Of a DNA stretch of 32,000 bases, positions 7,207 to 29,327 are shown in pieces (within the stretch, counting starts at the first letter, position 1; each line of letters starts with the position of its first letter). This stretch comes from Candidatus Saccharimonadota bacterium (GTDB lineage: Bacteria > Patescibacteriota > Saccharimonadia > Saccharimonadales > Saccharimonadaceae). The stretch covers positions 540,001-572,000 of the forward strand of contig CP064995.1 of the NCBI GenBank assembly GCA_016700015.1, in the 5' to 3' direction. Under the pieces are notes generated by a model. It was not told where the DNA came from, made no database searches, and saw only the letters and a list, made by a program, of their open reading frames with translations. The translations under genes and the position numbers were made by a program.

Positions 7207-7320
7207 CATGCTCCACGGAGGTACGTTACTTGTACTTGGCCTCCTTTGCCGCTATACTAGGCCATAAGCACTATTACAAAAAATAGGGGGCGAATCATAA
7301 AACCACGCCAGTTCAGCAAT

Positions 7321-12252: not shown

Positions 12253-12284
12253 TACTGCTCATGCTCGTAATAGGGGTAAAACTC

Positions 12285-15296: not shown

Positions 15297-15351
15297 CGAT
15301 ACTCCTATGTTCGTAGGGGCGTACCCCTATTTTGAAGGGATATTGGTGTAT

Positions 15352-15845: not shown

Positions 15846-15893
15846 CTCCCATCCCTACGCACCGCCATCTACTAGGCGGTGTCTCTAGTATTT

Positions 15894-15922
15894 ACTATAG
15901 TATATTTGCTATATTATGTCAA
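15894..15922 (-). promoter_or_regulatory. Sigma70-type promoter TTGACA-17-TATAGT
   Basis: The rc of 15917-15922 is TTGACA and the rc of 15894-15899 is TATAGT. It lies inside the spurious N-terminal extension of the track's pth ORF. Confidence 0.55.
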
Positions 15923-15938
15923 TAATACGCCAACAACC

Positions 15939-15947
15939 TGCTATACT
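15939..15947 (+). promoter_or_regulatory. Extended -10 promoter (TGcTATACT) giving leaderless pth
   Basis: TATACT at 15942-15947 is 6 nt before the ATG at 15954, with no SD. Confidence 0.45.
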
Positions 15948-15953
15948 GGTGTT

Positions 15954-16517
15954 ATGAAATGTATCATTGGGCTGGGCAATCCAGAGTTGCACTATCGGCA
16001 GACAAGGCACAACGTTGGATTTGAGTTACTTGACGCATTTGCGACTACACATGGCGCTACCTGGCAGCGCCGCGACAAGTTTCGCGCCGACATTGCCGAG
16101 CTAAACATCGCCGAAGAAAGGGTAATCCTCGTCAAGCCGACAACCTACTATAACCGAGTCGGTGAATCAGCACAGGCAATCGTCGATTTCTATAAAATCA
16201 CGACAAATGATGTAGTGGTCGCGCACGACGACCTTGCTCTGCCACTCGGCACGATCCGCACCCGACAAGGGGGGAGTGACGGAGGCAACAACGGTCTCAA
16301 ATCGCTCTCCCAACATCTTGGCGCCAATACAAATCGCATCCGCATTGGCGTCTGGACCGATCATCATACTGCCATGGACAAAGCCGATGTCGTGCTGGGC
16401 AAATTTACCGCCGATGAACAGCAAGTAATTACAAAAATTAAACCGACAGCCATTAGCCTGCTACAAGATTTTATCGCCGGTCACTTTGAATCGACAACTC
16501 ACTACAGCAACAACTAA
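15954..16517 (+). CDS. pth: Peptidyl-tRNA hydrolase
   Basis: MKCIIGLGNPELHYRQTRHNVGF is the canonical Pth N-terminus, and HDDLALPLGTIR and GGNNGLKS follow. The start is moved from 15879 to 15954. Confidence 0.9.
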   Translation: MKCIIGLGNPELHYRQTRHNVGFELLDAFATTHGATWQRRDKFRADIAELNIAEERVILVKPTTYYNRVGESAQAIVDFYKITTNDVVVAHDDLALPLGTIRTRQGGSDGGNNGLKSLSQHLGANTNRIRIGVWTDHHTAMDKADVVLGKFTADEQQVITKIKPTAISLLQDFIAGHFESTTHYSNN

Positions 16518-17263
16518 ACACCCAGCATCGTAATCGCAACAGCCACAAACACCACACCACCCAGTAGCACCACCGCCTGCCAGGTACCGATGTTGCGTGG
16601 CTGTTCGTGAATATCAGGGATGATGTCGCTCGCTGCGATGTAAATGAACATACCACTGGTGATCGCCAGGAGCTGCGCAATCGGCAGACCGCTATCGGTG
16701 CCCAGTAAATACGTCAAACTCGCCGCCACTAGTGTACCCACTGCTGTCATGGTGTTGGCAAGCAGCACTTTTTTGTCTTTCCAGCCGCGCGATAGCAGTA
16801 TGCCAAAGGTACCTAGTTCTTTGGGTATTTCGTGTGCACTGACAGCCAGCGTGGTGACGATACCAGTCACGGGGTTTGCCACAAATGCCGCGCCAATCGC
16901 TACGCCGTCGATCACATTGTGAAGTAGGTCACCAATCATCACCATGACGTTCTGCGACTGATTCTGCACACCATGCGAGTGTTCATGATGGTGGTGAAAC
17001 CAACCGGCTGTCCGCTCCAGCACAAAAAACGCCAAAAATCCCGCGAGTGCCCACAGCAGTAGCGACCGAGGTTCCGCTAGCTCAAAACTTTCTGGCAGCA
17101 GATCAAAAAATGCTGCTGCAAGCAGGGCACCAGCACCAAATGGCATCGCCAAAGTAATAGCGGTCGAACGGCGTTTTTGGCTAAGAAAAATTGTCGCGCC
17201 GCCAAGCAGCGAAACCGCGCTGCCTATCAAAATAACCGCGATCATGAGAGCGAATATATCCAT
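16514..17263 (-). CDS. ZIP-family divalent metal transporter (ZupT/GufA-like)
   Basis: 249 aa, about 8 TM. It has a His-rich loop WFHHHHEHSHG and the motifs HNVIDGVAIGAAF and HEIPKELGTFGILL. Confidence 0.85.
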   Translation of the reverse strand: MDIFALMIAVILIGSAVSLLGGATIFLSQKRRSTAITLAMPFGAGALLAAAFFDLLPESFELAEPRSLLLWALAGFLAFFVLERTAGWFHHHHEHSHGVQNQSQNVMVMIGDLLHNVIDGVAIGAAFVANPVTGIVTTLAVSAHEIPKELGTFGILLSRGWKDKKVLLANTMTAVGTLVAASLTYLLGTDSGLPIAQLLAITSGMFIYIAASDIIPDIHEQPRNIGTWQAVVLLGGVVFVAVAITMLGV

Positions 17264-17269
17264 ACACGC

Positions 17270-17278
17270 ATTGTACCA
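17270..17278 (-). promoter_or_regulatory. Extended -10 promoter (TGgTACAAT) giving a leaderless ZIP transporter mRNA
   Basis: The rc of 17270-17278 is TGGTACAAT, 6 nt before the ATG at 17263, with no SD. Confidence 0.4.
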
Positions 17279-17314
17279 TGCCCATCACTACCACTCGGGA
17301 GTATCAAGCATACC

Positions 17315-17340
17315 AAAAACCGAGCCGAAGCTCGGGTTTT
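17315..17340 (-). terminator. Rho-independent terminator (bidirectional shape)
   Basis: Minus strand: CCGAGC-UUCG-GCUCGG followed by UUUUU. The plus strand also has a T4 run. Confidence 0.8.
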
Positions 17341-17613
17341 GACTATTCTTCCGTAAAGGTGCCAGGTAAGGGTGGGCATCACCTGGCACCATTACGCCCT
17401 TCATCCCACCCTGAAGTCGGGTATTAGCGTGACCCACCTCACAAATACAAGAGGTCCGCCGGACAAAGGGGTTAGTATACGCACGAGAGCTGACAAGGCA
17501 AGCCTTGGCCTGACAGTGGAGGGTAGAATACTGGCAAGCACCCTTGTGCGCAACCTAACATAAGTTAGAATAGGGGGTATAAGGTGCTTGATTCAGCTTT
17601 CGCTGATCAATCG
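17315..17613 (-). ncRNA. Unassigned structured RNA of about 300 nt (independent sRNA, or a terminator-containing leader of the ZIP transporter gene)
   Basis: It is bracketed by a TTGACA-17-TAATAT promoter and an intrinsic terminator, with no credible ORF inside. Several hairpins can be folded by hand, including a 10-bp perfect stem (17358-17367 / 17381-17390), a GNRA-capped stem (17594-17605), and loop-loop complementarity GGUGGG/CCCACC. Confidence 0.5.
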
Positions 17614-17619
17614 TACTTC

Positions 17620-17648
17620 ATATTATCACACACTTGACTATATGTCAA
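17620..17648 (-). promoter_or_regulatory. Sigma70-type promoter TTGACA-17-TAATAT driving the candidate ncRNA
   Basis: The rc of 17643-17648 is TTGACA and the rc of 17620-17625 is TAATAT, with a 17-nt spacer. Confidence 0.55.
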
Positions 17649-17669
17649 TACTTTTTACCACCAAATTTT

Positions 17670-18530
17670 ATGAAAATCAATGAAATCTCACCTCTAAAGC
17701 ATAAGTACTTACGGATTACCTCTGTTATTGCTAAACCACCACAAAAGTTGTTTTATATCGGCGCATTGCCAAAAACTCGAATCCCCACCGTTGCGGTTGT
17801 CGGCACGCGCAAGCCAACCAGTTATGGCAAAGAGGTGACTGAGCGCCTGGCGTACGATCTCGCCAGCAAAGGTGTCGTTGTTGTCAGCGGGCTGGCGCTT
17901 GGCACCGATGCCATCGCCCACCAAGCTGTTCTCGACGCTAAAGGCACAACTATCGCCATATTGCCATGCGGTCTACCAAAAATCGCACCCGCAACCAACC
18001 ATCAGCTAGCTCACCGTATCGTCGAGCACGGCGGAGCACTGATTAGCGAGTTCACCGAAGGTGCAGAGATTGTCTGGAAATCGAATTTGCTGCAGCGGAA
18101 CCGCCTGGTAGCTGGCCTCGCTGATGCACTACTCATTACTGAGGCCAGTGCCCGCAGCGGCACGCTCAATACCGCCGGCCACGCGCTCGAGCAGGGAAAG
18201 CACGTGTTTGTGGTACCGGGCAATATCACTAGTCCGCAAAGTGCCGGGTGCAACCAGCTCATCAAACAAGGGGCCACCCCTGTTACCTGCGCCGAAGACA
18301 TTCTCGAAGTGATTGCACCACAGTTACTTACCGCTCAGTCACAACTGGCACTGGGCGGCACACCCGCCGAAACCGCCATCATAGAGCAACTAAAAGCCGG
18401 ACTGCGCGATGGTGATGAAATCCAGCGTACAACTGGTACTGCGGCAGAGGAATTTGGCGTCGCGCTCACCATGCTCGAACTTGCCGGCACCATCAAAGCC
18501 CTCGGTGCCAACCAGTGGACGCTACGCTAA
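17670..18530 (+). CDS. dprA: DNA processing protein DprA (Smf)
   Basis: Rossmann-like DprA core VAVVGTRKPTSYG...VVVSGLALGTDAIAHQAVL...ILPCGL...NRLVAGLADALLITEASARSGTLNTAGHALEQGKHVFVVPG. The start is moved from the TTG at 17634 to the ATG at 17670. Confidence 0.9.
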   Translation: MKINEISPLKHKYLRITSVIAKPPQKLFYIGALPKTRIPTVAVVGTRKPTSYGKEVTERLAYDLASKGVVVVSGLALGTDAIAHQAVLDAKGTTIAILPCGLPKIAPATNHQLAHRIVEHGGALISEFTEGAEIVWKSNLLQRNRLVAGLADALLITEASARSGTLNTAGHALEQGKHVFVVPGNITSPQSAGCNQLIKQGATPVTCAEDILEVIAPQLLTAQSQLALGGTPAETAIIEQLKAGLRDGDEIQRTTGTAAEEFGVALTMLELAGTIKALGANQWTLR

Positions 18531-22221: not shown

Positions 22222-23280
22222 ATGAGCGACAATGCCAGCAAAGACACAGCCCTAGTTCTAAAGACTGCTGTTCAAGACATTTTGGGAGCGATCGACCAGG
22301 AGCGCGAGCGTGAAATCATAACTCGTCGTTTTGGGTTATTTGATCGCCGTGAAACACTCGAGCAGATTGGCGAATTGCTTGGCATTACCCGAGAACGCGT
22401 ACGCCAGCTCGAAAAAGCCATCCTTATACGACTCAAAATTGCGGCTGACGATGGTAGAATTCCTGTTATCCATGAGGTCGAACGCCTTATCATACGCGAC
22501 CTCAGCGAAAACGGTCGCGTGGGGCGCATCCAGGATGTCGCAGCTCGTCTGACCAATAGCGTGCCGAGTGCCGAAACCAAAGCTCATGTCGCTTTTGTTG
22601 CCGAGCTTTCGCCTAAACTTACGGCTATTAGCGAAAATGATAACTATTTCCAAGGTGTCGGTATCGCCGAGAACGGTGACGAGAAAAAGGTTCGCACCCA
22701 AGTGGACGAAATTGTTAAAACCATCAAAAAGCACGGTGAACCTGTCGATATTGAAACACTCCACGGCATGCTTACCCATGAAGCCCCAAGTCAAGTGCGC
22801 GCTCTTGCTAGCCTTAGTAAGCTTCTCGCCAACCTCAAAGATGTGTGGGGCCTTGTTAAGTGGCCGACTGTCAACCCCAAGAATATTCGCGACAAAATTT
22901 ATGTTATTCTTGCCGACAGCGGTAAGCCAATGCATTTTAGTGACATCGCGGGACACATCAAGCAAAGTGATTTTAAGCGCAAAGACGTTACCACGCAAGC
23001 GATTCACAATGAACTGATTAAAGACAAACGCTTTGTGCTGATTGGCCGTGGCATTTATGCGCTTGACAGCTGGGGCTACAGCAAGGGAACAGTCAGTGAC
23101 ATCATCACCAAAGTTCTCAAAAAAGCCGGCGAACCACTCCACCGCGACGAGATCGTAAAAAGAGTGCTTAAAAGCCGCCAAGTGAAAGAAACGACCATTC
23201 TCTTGAACCTACAGAGCAAACCCGAGTTCAAGCGTGTTGCTAAAGCAACCTACACACTAGCAGAGCCGGTAGCAAAATAG
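22222..23280 (+). CDS. Sigma-70 region-4 HTH fused to tandem HARE-HTH / winged-helix modules
   Basis: Residues about 28-72, REIITRRFGLFDRRETLEQIGELLGITRERVRQLEKAILIRLK, look like sigma70 region 4.2. Three modules follow, each of the type I..(V/I)(L/K)..G.P(M/V/L)..... and ending in an aromatic motif: ...KDVWGLVKWP; IYVILADSGKPMHFSDIAGHI...RFVLIGRGIYALDSWGY; IITKVLKKAGEPLHRDEIVKRVL...ATYTLA. This resembles the RNAP delta-subunit HARE-HTH. Confidence 0.7.
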   Translation: MSDNASKDTALVLKTAVQDILGAIDQEREREIITRRFGLFDRRETLEQIGELLGITRERVRQLEKAILIRLKIAADDGRIPVIHEVERLIIRDLSENGRVGRIQDVAARLTNSVPSAETKAHVAFVAELSPKLTAISENDNYFQGVGIAENGDEKKVRTQVDEIVKTIKKHGEPVDIETLHGMLTHEAPSQVRALASLSKLLANLKDVWGLVKWPTVNPKNIRDKIYVILADSGKPMHFSDIAGHIKQSDFKRKDVTTQAIHNELIKDKRFVLIGRGIYALDSWGYSKGTVSDIITKVLKKAGEPLHRDEIVKRVLKSRQVKETTILLNLQSKPEFKRVAKATYTLAEPVAK

Positions 23281-24116: not shown

Positions 24117-26963
24117 ATGTCATTTATCCTTGCCTTTATCAATATGCTTCTCCAGTGGTACGTCTGGCTGCCCATCGTACTGATACTGGCGTATCTGACA
24201 TGGCGCAACTATCAAAAGGTCGACATCGTCCGCGAGATAGAAAGCGTACTCCTCGTACTTGAGATCCCTAAAACCAATGATAAAAGCGAGCTGGCTGCCG
24301 AGCAAATGTTCGCTAGTCTCCACGGCATATTGCGCGATCGCAAAGAGCTTAAACTCAACGGTGGCTACCAAGAACACCTCAGCTTCGAAGTCGCCTCGGT
24401 TGGCGGCCGGATTCAGTTCTACGTATGGGTACCAAAAACCTTGCAGAGTTTTGTAGAAGGGCAAATCTATTCGCAGTACCCGCAGGTACAGATCCACGCG
24501 GCCGATGAAGACTATGTTACTCACGAGAGGCACCACAGCGTAACCTACACCAGCGAAATTGTGCCGACCGACAAAGAATTTTTGCCCATTAAAACCTTCC
24601 AAAGCTTCGAAGTCGACCCGCTGGCGGGCATCACTGGCACACTCGCCAAACTTGAAGACACAGACGAAGAAATTTGGATACAAATCCTTGTGCGCCCAGT
24701 AGCCGACGACTGGCATAAAGCAACCGACGCTTGGATTAAATCTGTCAAAAACGGTTCCATAAGCCTATTTAGCGGTGGCGGCATCAACGCCAAATGGTTT
24801 GCCGGCCTCTTTGAAGCATTGTGGGCTCCACCAGAGCAGGGCACAGCGAGCGCTGCCGTCAAAGAAGTCAGTGAACGCGACAAAACCCGTATCGCCGAAG
24901 CCGAAAAGAAAGCGACGAAACTCGGCTATCAGGCGAAAATCCGCATTGCTTACCTAGGCGAAAGTACAACCAATGCCAAGCTGCGCATGCAGGGAATCGT
25001 CGGCACCTTTAAACAATTCAATAGTACCAACCTCAATGGGTTCAAGATGGCTAACGACAGCTTCGCCAAAGAAGCGCTCGACAAATATAAATCCCGTCTT
25101 TTTGCCGACAAGGGTTATTTGCTCAATATTGAAGAAGTAGCGAGCGTGTACCACTTGCCTCACACCAACGTCGAAACGCCGAATATTGTCTGGGCCAGTA
25201 CTAAAACCGCCGAACCACCCGCCAAGCTACCGCTCCTCACCGGCAACCCCGCAATCGATGAAAACATCAGTGCGTTTGGTATGACCAATTTCCGCGGCAT
25301 CAATCACCAATTTGGTATGCTACGCTACGACCGCTCGCGCCATGTTTACATTATCGGCCAGACCGGTGCGGGTAAGTCAGGTTTGCTCGAGCTCTTCGCG
25401 CTGAGCGATATATTCCACGGCCAAGGCTATGCCATTATCGACCCGCACGGCGACTTTGCCATCAACAACATGAAGTTCATTCCTGGGGCTCGTATGAAAG
25501 ATGTCGTGTATTTTAACCCTGCAGATACGCAGTTCCCGCTCGGCTTCAATCCACTTGAAGTCACCAACCCCGAGCAAAAATCCAACATCAGCAGCGAAGT
25601 GATCGGCGTGCTTAAGCGCATGTTCGGCGAGAGTTGGGGACCGCGCCTCGAATACATTCTACGCTATACCATCCTCGCGCTGCTTGATCGTCCCGAAACC
25701 ACTATGCTCGACATTACCCGTATGCTCACTGACAAAAAGTTCCGCAAAGACACGCTCAGCTACTGTCAGGATACCGTGGTATTGCAGTTCTGGAATGTGG
25801 AATTTGCCAGCTGGACCGACAAATTCCAAGCCGAAGCGATCGCGCCCGTACTTAACAAAGTTGGTGCTTTCACCGCCAACCCGGTTATCCGCAACATCAT
25901 CGGACAGCCCAAAAGCACCTTTAATATCCGCGAGATGATGGACGAGGGCAAAATTCTCATCGTAAACCTCTCTAAAGGCCTCATCGGCGAAGACAACGCT
26001 GGTATCCTTGGCTCATTCCTTGTGACTAAAATTCAGCTCGCCGCCATGAGCCGCAGCGATATCGCGAGTATCGAGGACCGTCGTCCATTCTATCTGTACG
26101 TCGACGAGTTTCAAAACTTTGCTACTGATAGCTTTGCAACCATTTTGTCCGAAGCTCGCAAATACGGCCTCAACCTTACTGTCGCCAACCAGTACATCAG
26201 CCAGATGAGCGACACCGTGCGCAACGCCGTGTTCGGCAACGTCGGCACTATGATTAGTTTCCGTGTCTCGGCCGATGATAGCCCCATCCTGAGCAAGCAG
26301 TTCGAGCCACAGTTCGAACCAAATGATCTGTTGCAGATGCACAACCGCAACTTTGTCGTCAATATGGTGATAAATGGCGAGAAAGCTCCGGCCTTCAGCG
26401 CGCGCACACTCAACCTGCCACCGGCACAAACCGACAATACACATTTGATTATAGAGAATACCCGTGCGCTTTATGGCCAGCCACGTGCCGCGATTGAAGA
26501 ATCAATTAACAATCGCATCATGCCGCCCGAAAATCTCGTCGTCAAACGACCTGGCCCTGCCTACACACCACCCAAGAGCGAGGAGCAACGAGAAACCGAT
26601 CGCCGCGAGCGCGAAGTGGCAATGGTCGCTCAGGGCAAAACCTGGCCAATCAGCAATGTTACGCCCGACGAAGTAAATAGCGCCCTACAGGCGGCGAAAG
26701 AGCAGGGGAATACTAGCCCCGCAGCAACCGAGGCGGGCAATCGCCCCGTGGCTGCGTTTGGCTCACACGACAACGACCAAGGTAAGCGTAAACGTCCACG
26801 CACGCGTAAGCGTAAGCCCAGCGACGATAATGACTATCCACGCCAGGGGAGCAACAAGCCAAACCGACCGCGCATTATCCGCGAGAGTGATGACCGGCAG
26901 GGAGCAGACACCCCTGCGCCAGCGCGTCCGAAAGAAGATCCTACAGTTCTTTCGCTACGCTAA
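24117..26963 (+). CDS. TraD/VirD4-like (T4SS coupling-protein family) P-loop ATPase with an uncharacterised N-terminal domain and a basic disordered tail
   Basis: 948 aa with an N-terminal TM helix. Walker A is YIIGQTGAGKSGLL and Walker B is FYLYVDEFQNF, followed by ARKYGLNLTVANQYISQM. This is typical of TrwB/TraD/HerA-like hexameric translocases. Residues 1-400 show no motif I recognise. The tail is GKRKRPRTRKRKPSDD... Confidence 0.7.
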   Translation: MSFILAFINMLLQWYVWLPIVLILAYLTWRNYQKVDIVREIESVLLVLEIPKTNDKSELAAEQMFASLHGILRDRKELKLNGGYQEHLSFEVASVGGRIQFYVWVPKTLQSFVEGQIYSQYPQVQIHAADEDYVTHERHHSVTYTSEIVPTDKEFLPIKTFQSFEVDPLAGITGTLAKLEDTDEEIWIQILVRPVADDWHKATDAWIKSVKNGSISLFSGGGINAKWFAGLFEALWAPPEQGTASAAVKEVSERDKTRIAEAEKKATKLGYQAKIRIAYLGESTTNAKLRMQGIVGTFKQFNSTNLNGFKMANDSFAKEALDKYKSRLFADKGYLLNIEEVASVYHLPHTNVETPNIVWASTKTAEPPAKLPLLTGNPAIDENISAFGMTNFRGINHQFGMLRYDRSRHVYIIGQTGAGKSGLLELFALSDIFHGQGYAIIDPHGDFAINNMKFIPGARMKDVVYFNPADTQFPLGFNPLEVTNPEQKSNISSEVIGVLKRMFGESWGPRLEYILRYTILALLDRPETTMLDITRMLTDKKFRKDTLSYCQDTVVLQFWNVEFASWTDKFQAEAIAPVLNKVGAFTANPVIRNIIGQPKSTFNIREMMDEGKILIVNLSKGLIGEDNAGILGSFLVTKIQLAAMSRSDIASIEDRRPFYLYVDEFQNFATDSFATILSEARKYGLNLTVANQYISQMSDTVRNAVFGNVGTMISFRVSADDSPILSKQFEPQFEPNDLLQMHNRNFVVNMVINGEKAPAFSARTLNLPPAQTDNTHLIIENTRALYGQPRAAIEESINNRIMPPENLVVKRPGPAYTPPKSEEQRETDRREREVAMVAQGKTWPISNVTPDEVNSALQAAKEQGNTSPAATEAGNRPVAAFGSHDNDQGKRKRPRTRKRKPSDDNDYPRQGSNKPNRPRIIRESDDRQGADTPAPARPKEDPTVLSLR

Positions 26964-28743: not shown

Positions 28744-29327
28744 TAGAACATTATTTCAATTCGATATGCATCCATGTGACTCAACCACAGAATATGCCGA
28801 ATACGTAACAGCAACTGGCAAAAGCCAAAAACAGCCTTGCGGTGCCTATGGGCATGCAGGGAATAGTAATGCAGAACAACAGGTAGGCGGGTCCAAATTT
28901 TACAAACTGTGCGTAGGGAAACGTACTCGCGGGTGATATCATTATCTATTGATTTAACGTCGCGCAATATATCTTTCACGACATTAAAACAATGGCTCGA
29001 AGATGAGTCAGCATACGTCGAAATAGAGTGCTAATTTAACCTGATACCCCTGGTGGGGGAAGTGCTGCTTCTATTCGAATTATCTATGCATCATTTTACT
29101 GTTTGTTGTGCTTCATTTGTATACCACACACTAACTCCATGACCTGCGTGTTGTTAGTTTTGTGACATAGCTATCGCTATAGCGTACCGCTATTTATCCA
29201 CAAGTCCATGTTTTCACGAGCGCTGATATTTGCATTTTTTAAAAATTATTACCCCCCTATTCTTTTAAGGCTTTCCTTCCCTGTTTGCTTTTTTGTAGTT
29301 TCTATATTTTAATATATATTTTTATCA

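Follow-up and report, generated by a model that had tools for sequence, protein, structure and literature searches.

What is encoded in the 406-bp gap between the ZIP metal transporter gene (16514–17263, minus strand) and dprA (start codon ATG at 17670, plus strand) in Candidatus Saccharimonadota bacterium? The window analyzed here is a stretch of 32,000 nucleotides (GenBank assembly GCA_016700015.1, contig CP064995.1, positions 540,001–572,000 of the forward strand), and positions are counted from its first letter. A first-pass annotation had proposed that the gap lacks a credible open reading frame (ORF) and that its minus strand encodes a structured RNA, about 300 nt long, flanked by a promoter and a terminator of its own. 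The RNA is real and represents a family of large structured RNAs that has not been catalogued before and is specific to Saccharibacteria (TM7, class Saccharimonadia). It is reasonably probable that the locus encodes a stand-alone non-coding RNA (ncRNA) of this family that acts in trans, most likely in a ribonucleoprotein (RNP).

The transcription unit is composed of the following features.

17620–17660, minus strand: promoter of the RNA gene (promoter scan with 10 of 12 matches plus TG, and sequence reading).
17315–17614, minus strand: predicted transcript, about 300 nt in the source organism (covariance model, 212.7 bits, E = 6e-62).
17315–17357, minus strand: lineage-specific 3′ tail with a second terminator (terminator scan).

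The promoter scan of the minus strand finds the −35 element TTGACA (17648–17643), a 17-nt spacer and the extended −10 element TGaTAATAT (17628–17620), in which TAATAT occupies 17625–17620. This is the TTGACA-17-TAATAT promoter proposed earlier at 17620–17648, with the TG extension added. The A/T-rich stretch AAAAAGTA lies upstream of the −35 element, and the promoter is near-consensus, of the UP-like/extended −10 type, and of a very strong, constitutive kind. The spacer contains GTCAA, which forms a palindrome with the −35 element (17648–17634). The promoter is retained in 86 of 88 distinct upstream regions of relatives, TG in 77 and the palindrome in 67. The predicted transcription start is read off the position of the −10 box.

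At the other end, the terminator scan recovers the hairpin CCGAGC-UUCG-GCUCGG followed by five U (17335–17315), as the first-pass annotation had it. This distal terminator is an addition limited to the source species and its closest relatives. It is identical only in L001, and the second hairpins of L002 and L003 differ. In most relatives, the last conserved helix (P6, described below) and its U run constitute the intrinsic terminator, and the U run has at least four U in 91 of 97 cases. In the source species and its nearest relatives, just UUU comes after P6. The 306-nt stretch from promoter to terminator has a minimum free energy (MFE) of −126.6 kcal/mol vs. −93.5 ± 5.0 kcal/mol for dinucleotide shuffles (z = −6.7), and none of 100 shuffles reaches its stability. 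The two scans and the z score confirm the structured minus-strand RNA with its own promoter and terminator.

With nhmmer, a homologous sequence is found in every one of the 37 Saccharibacteria species genomes; it lies directly upstream of dprA and on the strand opposite to this gene. A covariance model built from 15 short members recovers 38 of 38 copies at 74–269 bits. The conserved core that it matches in the window corresponds to 17353–17615 on the minus strand, and the RNA overall is about 260–300 nt long. Among the homologues, the length ranges from 221 to 450 nt, with a median of 290 nt. The model gives no match in the non-Saccharibacteria dprA loci searched. A metagenome search with the 13-nt loop of P6 plus the upstream AAGGG anchor as the query returned 120 contigs, 118 of which contain the complete RNA. 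The loop-motif matches in L158 and L197 are in coding DNA; they are due to chance and do not represent the RNA. None of the viral contigs searched carries the loop motif. The taxonomic limit stated above is based on loci reached via dprA or via this invariant loop.

A divergent clade of Saccharibacteria, designated clade D here, contains these copies and others.

L036:3647–3968, L103:8480–8802, L110:554–854, L116:2136–2438, L122:2547–2843, and L172:6777–7079: clade D copies of the RNA gene.

In clade D, the RNA gene lies between pth and topA in reversed orientation; dprA is not adjacent, and the RNA gene has its own promoter and terminator. In L116, the terminator of the RNA ends 27 nt before the ATG of topA. 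The conserved strands are altered to GCACCUAAAUAA, UACCUCCAC and GGAGGUGUG. A joint MAFFT seed alignment of the main clade and clade D was discarded; it had more than 400 columns and its 5′ half was misaligned.

The alignments of the orthologous sequences show covariation at all six helices of the fold. From a plain MAFFT alignment, RNAalifold derives 45 pairs, of which 20 are compensatory. In covariance-model alignments, standard pairs occupy 92.7% of the cells vs. 34–47% when the partners are slid by 1–3 columns. The number of pairs that vary on both sides is 50–51, and none of 500 shuffles reaches the observed values. In the helices, G.U pairs outnumber A.C pairs 183 to 32, indicating that the minus strand is the folded strand. 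Transcription of the plus strand is rejected because of this asymmetry together with the promoter and the terminator. The longest ORF varies from 18 to 89 aa among 113 homologues (median 41 aa), and therefore nothing is translated in a conserved manner. With no conserved ORF among these homologues, a protein-coding gap is rejected, in agreement with the original reading of the gap.

The six covarying helices are designated P1 to P6, and P2 and P4 close two adjacent domains.

17588–17610, minus strand: P1, the 5′ hairpin UUGAU-CAGC-GAAA-GCUG-(A)-AUCAA (6–7 of 7 pairs vary on both sides in relatives).
17564–17587, minus strand: J1/2, the single strand GCACCUUAUACCCCCUAUU (17587–17569), then the upstream CUAAC copy (alignments).
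17471–17559, minus strand: P2–P3 domain (RNAalifold on the plain MAFFT alignment, with which the window MFE agrees).
17514–17531, minus strand: L3a loop, GUAUUCUACCCUCCACUG (invariant alignment columns).
17397–17470, minus strand: P4 domain (97–98% paired, compensatory changes at three inner pairs).
17405–17411, minus strand: J5/4, the G-rich strand GGGUGGG (complementary to the P6 loop in 94% of cells).
17358–17390, minus strand: P6, the 10-bp hairpin GGUGCCAGGU/ACCUGGCACC (98.9–100% paired; 9 of 10 pairs vary on both sides).

Some of these helices had been folded by hand in the first-pass annotation, and the alignments sort them into conserved and local ones. The hairpin CAGC-GAAA-GCUG (17594–17605) is real and corresponds to the tip of P1. 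The perfect 10-bp stem at 17358–17390 is P6 itself. In J1/2, GCACCU is retained even in clade D, while the upstream CUAAC copy is present in the main clade only. P2 is formed by GUUAG (17559–17555) and the downstream CUAAC (17475–17471), and is also present in the single-sequence MFE structure. It is changed to GUUGC/GCAAC in clade D and to GUUAU/AUAAC in L033. The hairpin CUAAC-UUAU-GUUAG had been proposed here; its upstream CUAAC exists, but the conserved partner of GUUAG is the downstream copy, and the local hairpin is replaced by the long-range pairing as the conserved P2. The upstream CUAAC may be an alternative partner of GUUAG in the main clade. P3 pairs UGCGCACAAGG (17552–17542) with CUCGUGCGUA (17487–17478). 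All 11 pairs of P3 change on both sides, and P3 is also seen in the window MFE.

Inside the P2–P3 domain are P3a and the hairpin CAAGG-CUUG-CCUUG. The latter exists in this genome as proposed, but it is species-specific, and the alignment has a varying hairpin at this position. L3a includes the near-invariant sequence UACCCUCCA, which resembles an anti-Shine-Dalgarno (anti-SD) sequence and is UACCUCCAC in clade D. P4 pairs CCCUUUGUCC (17470–17461) with GGAUGAAGGG (17406–17397) and encloses a variable domain. In this genome, the domain is the short "type A" P5 hairpin (17460–17426) with the loop motif GUGAGGUGGGUC. P5 shows the changes GACC/GGUC to GAUC/GAUC and GCG/CGC to GCA/UGC. The proposed hairpin GUGA-[GGUGGG]-UCAC (17441–17452) does not correspond to the conserved pairing, in which its GGGUC is joined to GACC(C) in P5. 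The loop of P6, L6, is the 13-nt sequence GAUGCCCACCCUU (17380–17368). L6 is identical in the window, in 36 of 37 species copies, and in all recovered copies long enough to include it; the extraction of L034 stopped short of L6, hence 36.

The P4-enclosed domain is either a short hairpin, of which there are two types, or a multi-stem module of about 100–175 nt with its own covarying hairpins. The long-form module (e.g., L007:3627–3947 and L023:3585–3947) has the conserved junction ACUAUNCAGUAGUG-hairpin-CAGGCGC-hairpin-GACGCUUC. Apart from this domain, inserts of about 170 nt are seen inside the RNA gene of two species (L005:3545–3976 and L017:3501–3950). They are located at two peripheral variable sites, the interval between J1/2 and P2 and the position just after L3a. 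In total, the fold accepts insertions, up to about 170 nt long, at four peripheral sites.

Among the 38 species-level copies, 52 columns are at least 95% conserved, 25 of which are unpaired in the model, and 31 columns are invariant. The conserved positions are clustered in C-rich elements (GCACCU, UACC(C)UCCA and GAUGCCCACCCUU) and G-rich elements (GGGUGGG, GAGGUGGG and AAGGG). The complementarity between CCCACCC of L6 and GGGUGGG of J5/4, pointed out in the first-pass annotation, is real and conserved in 94% of cells. As there is hardly any variation on either side, it does not covary. Between L3a and J5/4, UACCC/GGGUG of the main clade corresponds to UACCUCC/GGAGGUG of clade D, which represents one compensatory event. 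CACCU in J1/2 is also able to pair with the GGGUGGG strand. The candidate tertiary partners of L3a are GUGGAG, GUGAGG and GGGUG. In one long-form subgroup, CUCCAC, the 3′ half of L3a, faces the domain loop GUGGAG; the variants are CUCCGC/GUGGAG with a G.U pair (five sequences) and CUCCGC/ACGGAG with a G-C pair (one sequence). Because more than one partner is available to several of the C-rich and G-rich elements, mutually exclusive pairings are possible. As judged from these complementarities, a compact pseudoknotted core is likely.

Does the RNA belong to any known family? A search of the whole window against Rfam 15 at the gathering score gives no family match. At E ≤ 10, segments of 651 nt and 276 nt give only chance-level matches to microRNA and terminator-like models. 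With 14 relatives, searched at gathering thresholds, included, the Rfam searches yield only chance matches and one unrelated transfer RNA (tRNA). The Rfam check suggested for this region thus returns no meaningful match and no known family. ARAGORN predicts no tRNA and no transfer-messenger RNA (tmRNA) in the window. The best matches to the RNase P motifs CR-I (GAGGAAAGUCC) and CR-V (ACAGAAnnnGGCUUA) on either strand have 4/11 and 4/12 mismatches, and RF00010 and RF00011 give no match at E ≤ 10. The RNA begins with a local hairpin and finishes with the terminator hairpin, so that its two ends are not paired with each other, unlike those forming P1 of RNase P RNA. A likeness to the RNase P J11/12-like string AGGGUGAAAnGGUG with two mismatches was judged to be coincidental G-richness. 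The tmRNA pattern of T-arm and CCA has 6/15 mismatches, with no match to the tmRNA models of Rfam. The helix 8 consensus of signal recognition particle (SRP) RNA has 11/23 mismatches, and no SRP model matches at E ≤ 10. The partial likeness to SRP helix 8 (GUCAGGCC...CAGC) mentioned earlier does not hold, as the hairpin that contains it lacks conservation across species. No 6S RNA model of Rfam matches, and the consensus is multi-branched, not a rod closed by the 5′ and 3′ ends. Riboswitch families (e.g., NiCo, yybP-ykoY, and M-box) are found neither at the gathering threshold nor at E ≤ 10. In the open-access literature, no description of a Saccharibacteria or Candidate Phyla Radiation (CPR) ncRNA at this locus was found.

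The closest analogue in character is the raiA motif RNA (ModT) of Bacillota and Actinomycetota, yet the RNA is not a raiA member. Both are stand-alone, single-copy RNAs of the class of about 200–250 nt with a complex fold, many invariant nucleotides and pseudoknots, which are candidates in the present RNA. A competence gene adjoins both, comFC for raiA and dprA here. Both have short and long forms of an optional domain, and the long-form junction loosely recalls the optional multi-stem domain of raiA with its E-loop. The optional domain, the candidate pseudoknots and the adjacent competence gene are points of resemblance and do not indicate homology. In contrast to this RNA, raiA has a closing P1 formed by the 5′ and 3′ ends and the conserved linker UUAGACGUAA. 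Here, the best match to the linker has 4/10 mismatches, there is no end-to-end stem, and no raiA model of Rfam matches at E ≤ 10. The helix topology is different, the terminator hairpin is inside the conserved core, and the phylum is another one. The raiA RNA is abundant, shows knockout phenotypes and binds KhpA/KhpB, and its molecular function is still unknown (PMC10861870, PMC12968392).

OLE, ROOL and GOLLD, which form homo-oligomers (PMC12286853), are similarly lineage-restricted, strongly covarying and large, and were found by comparative genomics before their function. They are 2–3 times larger than the present RNA and unrelated to it in sequence and structure, and there is no Rfam match to them. 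RNase P RNA, tmRNA, SRP RNA and 6S RNA share with it the phylum-wide distribution, the single copy, the strong promoter of their own, the similar size and pseudoknots, but their defining motifs and topologies are absent here.

The genes around the RNA are informative about whether it serves any of them. The common neighborhood is der-pth-[variable]-RNA-dprA-[variable]-topA-sigma, and the flanking proteins in the window are Der/EngA, Pth, ZIP, DprA and TopA. Together with the best dprA relatives, these proteins assign the window to Saccharibacteria (TM7). The two immediate neighbors are as follows.

16514–17278, minus strand: ZIP transporter gene including its −10 element, a neighbor and not part of the RNA (Pfam Zip, 1e-39).
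17670–18530, plus strand: dprA, a divergent neighbor and not part of the RNA (Pfam DNA_processg_A, 3e-66).

As already seen in the first-pass annotation, the ZIP gene has an extended −10 element of its own, TGGTACAAT (17278–17270). It ends 7 nt before the ATG at 17263 and there is no SD sequence, so the ZIP messenger RNA (mRNA) is probably leaderless. The topA gene of L116 is preceded by the same layout (2100–2135), a −10 element close to the ATG and no SD. The ZIP gene and pth (15879–16517, plus strand) are convergent, and their 3′ ends overlap by 4 nt. ZIP is directly downstream of the RNA in only about 5–6 of the 37 species genomes and about 10 of the 120 metagenome contigs. In many loci, the terminator of the RNA faces the 3′ end of pth, and therefore no co-oriented gene follows.

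The true start of dprA is ATG at 17670, not TTG at 17634. It is 21 nt from the −35 element of the RNA gene and has no SD. The DprA protein is 81% identical to that of the metagenome-assembled genome UBA669. The palindrome TTGACA-N3-TGTCAA is found in 67 of 86 relatives and is absent from the clade without adjacent dprA. Its conservation and its loss where dprA is not adjacent suggest back-to-back promoters or an operator. What is conserved as a unit is the RNA gene, which neither serves ZIP nor is tied to dprA.

Several other observations concern the window. The sequence AAUAGGGG(G), the complement of the J1/2 strand, occurs in 4 copies outside the RNA gene (5 with its antisense strand) vs. 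about 1 expected. The sites are 7282–7290 (plus), 12269–12276 (plus), 15324–15331 (minus) and 29253–29261 (minus). Two of them precede the histidine-kinase and der ORFs by 27–39 nt; the four sites show no consistent setting. Downstream of topA, 22222–23280 encodes a protein joining sigma-70 region 4 and a HARE-HTH domain, and this sigma-like gene is syntenic across Saccharibacteria loci. Also downstream of topA, 24117–26963 encodes a 948-aa type IV coupling protein of the TraG/TrwB/VirD4 type.

Given this synteny, what could the RNA do? The first-pass annotation had considered either a metal-sensing leader governing read-through into ZIP or a stand-alone RNA. The former is extremely improbable. 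The same-strand ZIP gene follows the terminator by about 50 nt here and in a few relatives, and alternative C-rich/G-rich pairings exist. This arrangement is restricted to the small fraction of loci given above; pth is convergent in many others, and the RNA precedes topA in clade D. ZIP has a −10 element 7 nt in front of its ATG, no riboswitch model matches, and the hairpin of the terminator is, like its loop, invariant and not part of a switchable platform. The stand-alone alternative is borne out by the synteny, by the promoter and terminator of the RNA, and by the conservation of its gene. It is highly unlikely as well that the region is a cis element of dprA, in which this competence gene is controlled by an antisense 5′ region or by divergent promoters that overlap. 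The short distance between the −35 element and the dprA start, the conserved palindrome, and the adjacency in nearly all main-clade genomes are in favor of such control. However, clade D has the RNA without neighboring dprA, promoter interference needs no six-helix fold with invariant loops, and the region is broadly syntenic anyway. We see very little chance that the RNA is a highly diverged RNase P, SRP, 6S or tmRNA missed by Rfam in CPR. Its size of 221–450 nt fits RNase P RNA or tmRNA, it is present in one copy in a conserved housekeeping neighborhood, and RNase P RNAs of CPR bacteria are known to score lower than the Rfam thresholds (PMC8172020). Against this, the 276-nt segment matches none of the four families at E ≤ 10, neither CR-I nor CR-V (at least 4 mismatches for each) nor the SRP helix 8 motif is present, the ends are unpaired, ARAGORN reports no tmRNA, and the multi-branched fold is not the rod of 6S RNA. 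In addition, RF00010-type RNase P RNA has been reported in two circular Saccharimonadia genomes (PMC8172020).

The remaining alternatives concern the mode of action. A ribozyme whose activity or fold is new is quite unlikely. The large size, the many invariant unpaired nucleotides, the pseudoknots, and the retention in genomes of about 1 Mb would fit a catalyst, and it has been argued that most large bacterial RNAs of such complexity are catalytic or RNP cores (PMC10861870). There is, however, no known ribozyme signature, no Rfam ribozyme match and no evident substrate. A base-pairing regulator acting in trans, or a mimic of the 16S 3′ end, that tunes translation initiation globally is also unlikely, but such a base-pairing or decoy role is the main rival of the favored reading. 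In this case, the anti-SD-like loops (UACC(C)UCCAC, GCACCU and CCCACCCUU) would pair with G-rich ribosome-binding sites (RBSs) of mRNAs, or GGAGGUG-like strands would bind the 16S anti-SD. The three conserved C-rich YACC motifs, of which CCUCCA is universal including clade D, and the perfect SD sequence GGAGGUG in J5/4 of clade D are consistent with such pairing. ZIP, dprA and topA (L116) are without SD and look leaderless, so the initiation signals of this lineage may be unusual. On the other hand, every C-rich loop has a conserved internal G-rich complement; because these complements sit in the same RNA, the C-rich loops are probably occupied. Target sites complementary to the loops were searched for inside the window, and nothing consistent was found. 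The phylum-wide invariance and the six-helix fold of 250–450 nt are atypical of small RNAs (sRNAs) that pair by a seed. RsaE/RoxS-type sRNAs of Gram-positive bacteria have several unpaired C-rich motifs with possible pairing to G-rich RBSs and a 3′ intrinsic terminator, and are about 100 nt long with two or three simple hairpins. The present RNA differs from them in its length of 221–450 nt, its six covarying helices, and the internal G-rich partners of its C-rich loops.

The favored reading is a stand-alone RNA that probably works with protein. The RNA would be made constitutively at a high level. Its C-rich loops would dock on G-rich strands as pseudoknots or kissing loops and generate a compact core, and the RNA would work in trans via its three-dimensional fold. 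It would most likely be the RNA subunit or scaffold of an RNP, because conserved C-rich single strands suit KH-type binders. We infer that it is not a ligand-sensing leader of any neighboring gene. Several points weigh against this reading. Where the transcript starts and ends, and how abundant it is, are predictions from the sequence. The main candidate pseudoknot, L6 with GGGUGGG, shows no covariation, and with three possible C-rich partners for the one G-rich strand the tertiary model is not unique. The RNP role is proposed by analogy, and the anti-SD-like loops could pair with mRNAs instead. Other Patescibacteria could contain divergent homologues that escaped the search, and the negative literature search covers open-access text only.

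Large, phylum-wide and intricately folded bacterial RNAs are rare. Historically, such RNAs have been either core machinery (RNase P, SRP, tmRNA and 6S) or major open problems (OLE and raiA). CPR bacteria have genomes of about 1 Mb with little dispensable content, and their RNA biology is almost unexplored. The covariance model obtained here can improve the annotation of Saccharibacteria genomes, and the RNA could act as a lineage marker. Cultivated oral Saccharibacteria are genetically tractable via natural transformation (PMC10633639). Since the oral-type genomes L030–L032 carry the homologue, the function of the RNA is directly testable.

It can be speculated, as a rather unlikely case, that Saccharibacteria have an essential housekeeping RNA of their own, of the rank of RNase P, SRP or tmRNA. 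Such an RNA would form the pseudoknotted core of an RNP or a ribozyme, and its invariant anti-SD-like loops would contact the translation apparatus, for example, by mimicking the 16S 3′ end or the SD/anti-SD duplex. If this is true, the RNA would make up for functions that these ultra-small epibionts have lost, and a new core RNA machine would be an invention of the reduced CPR genomes.

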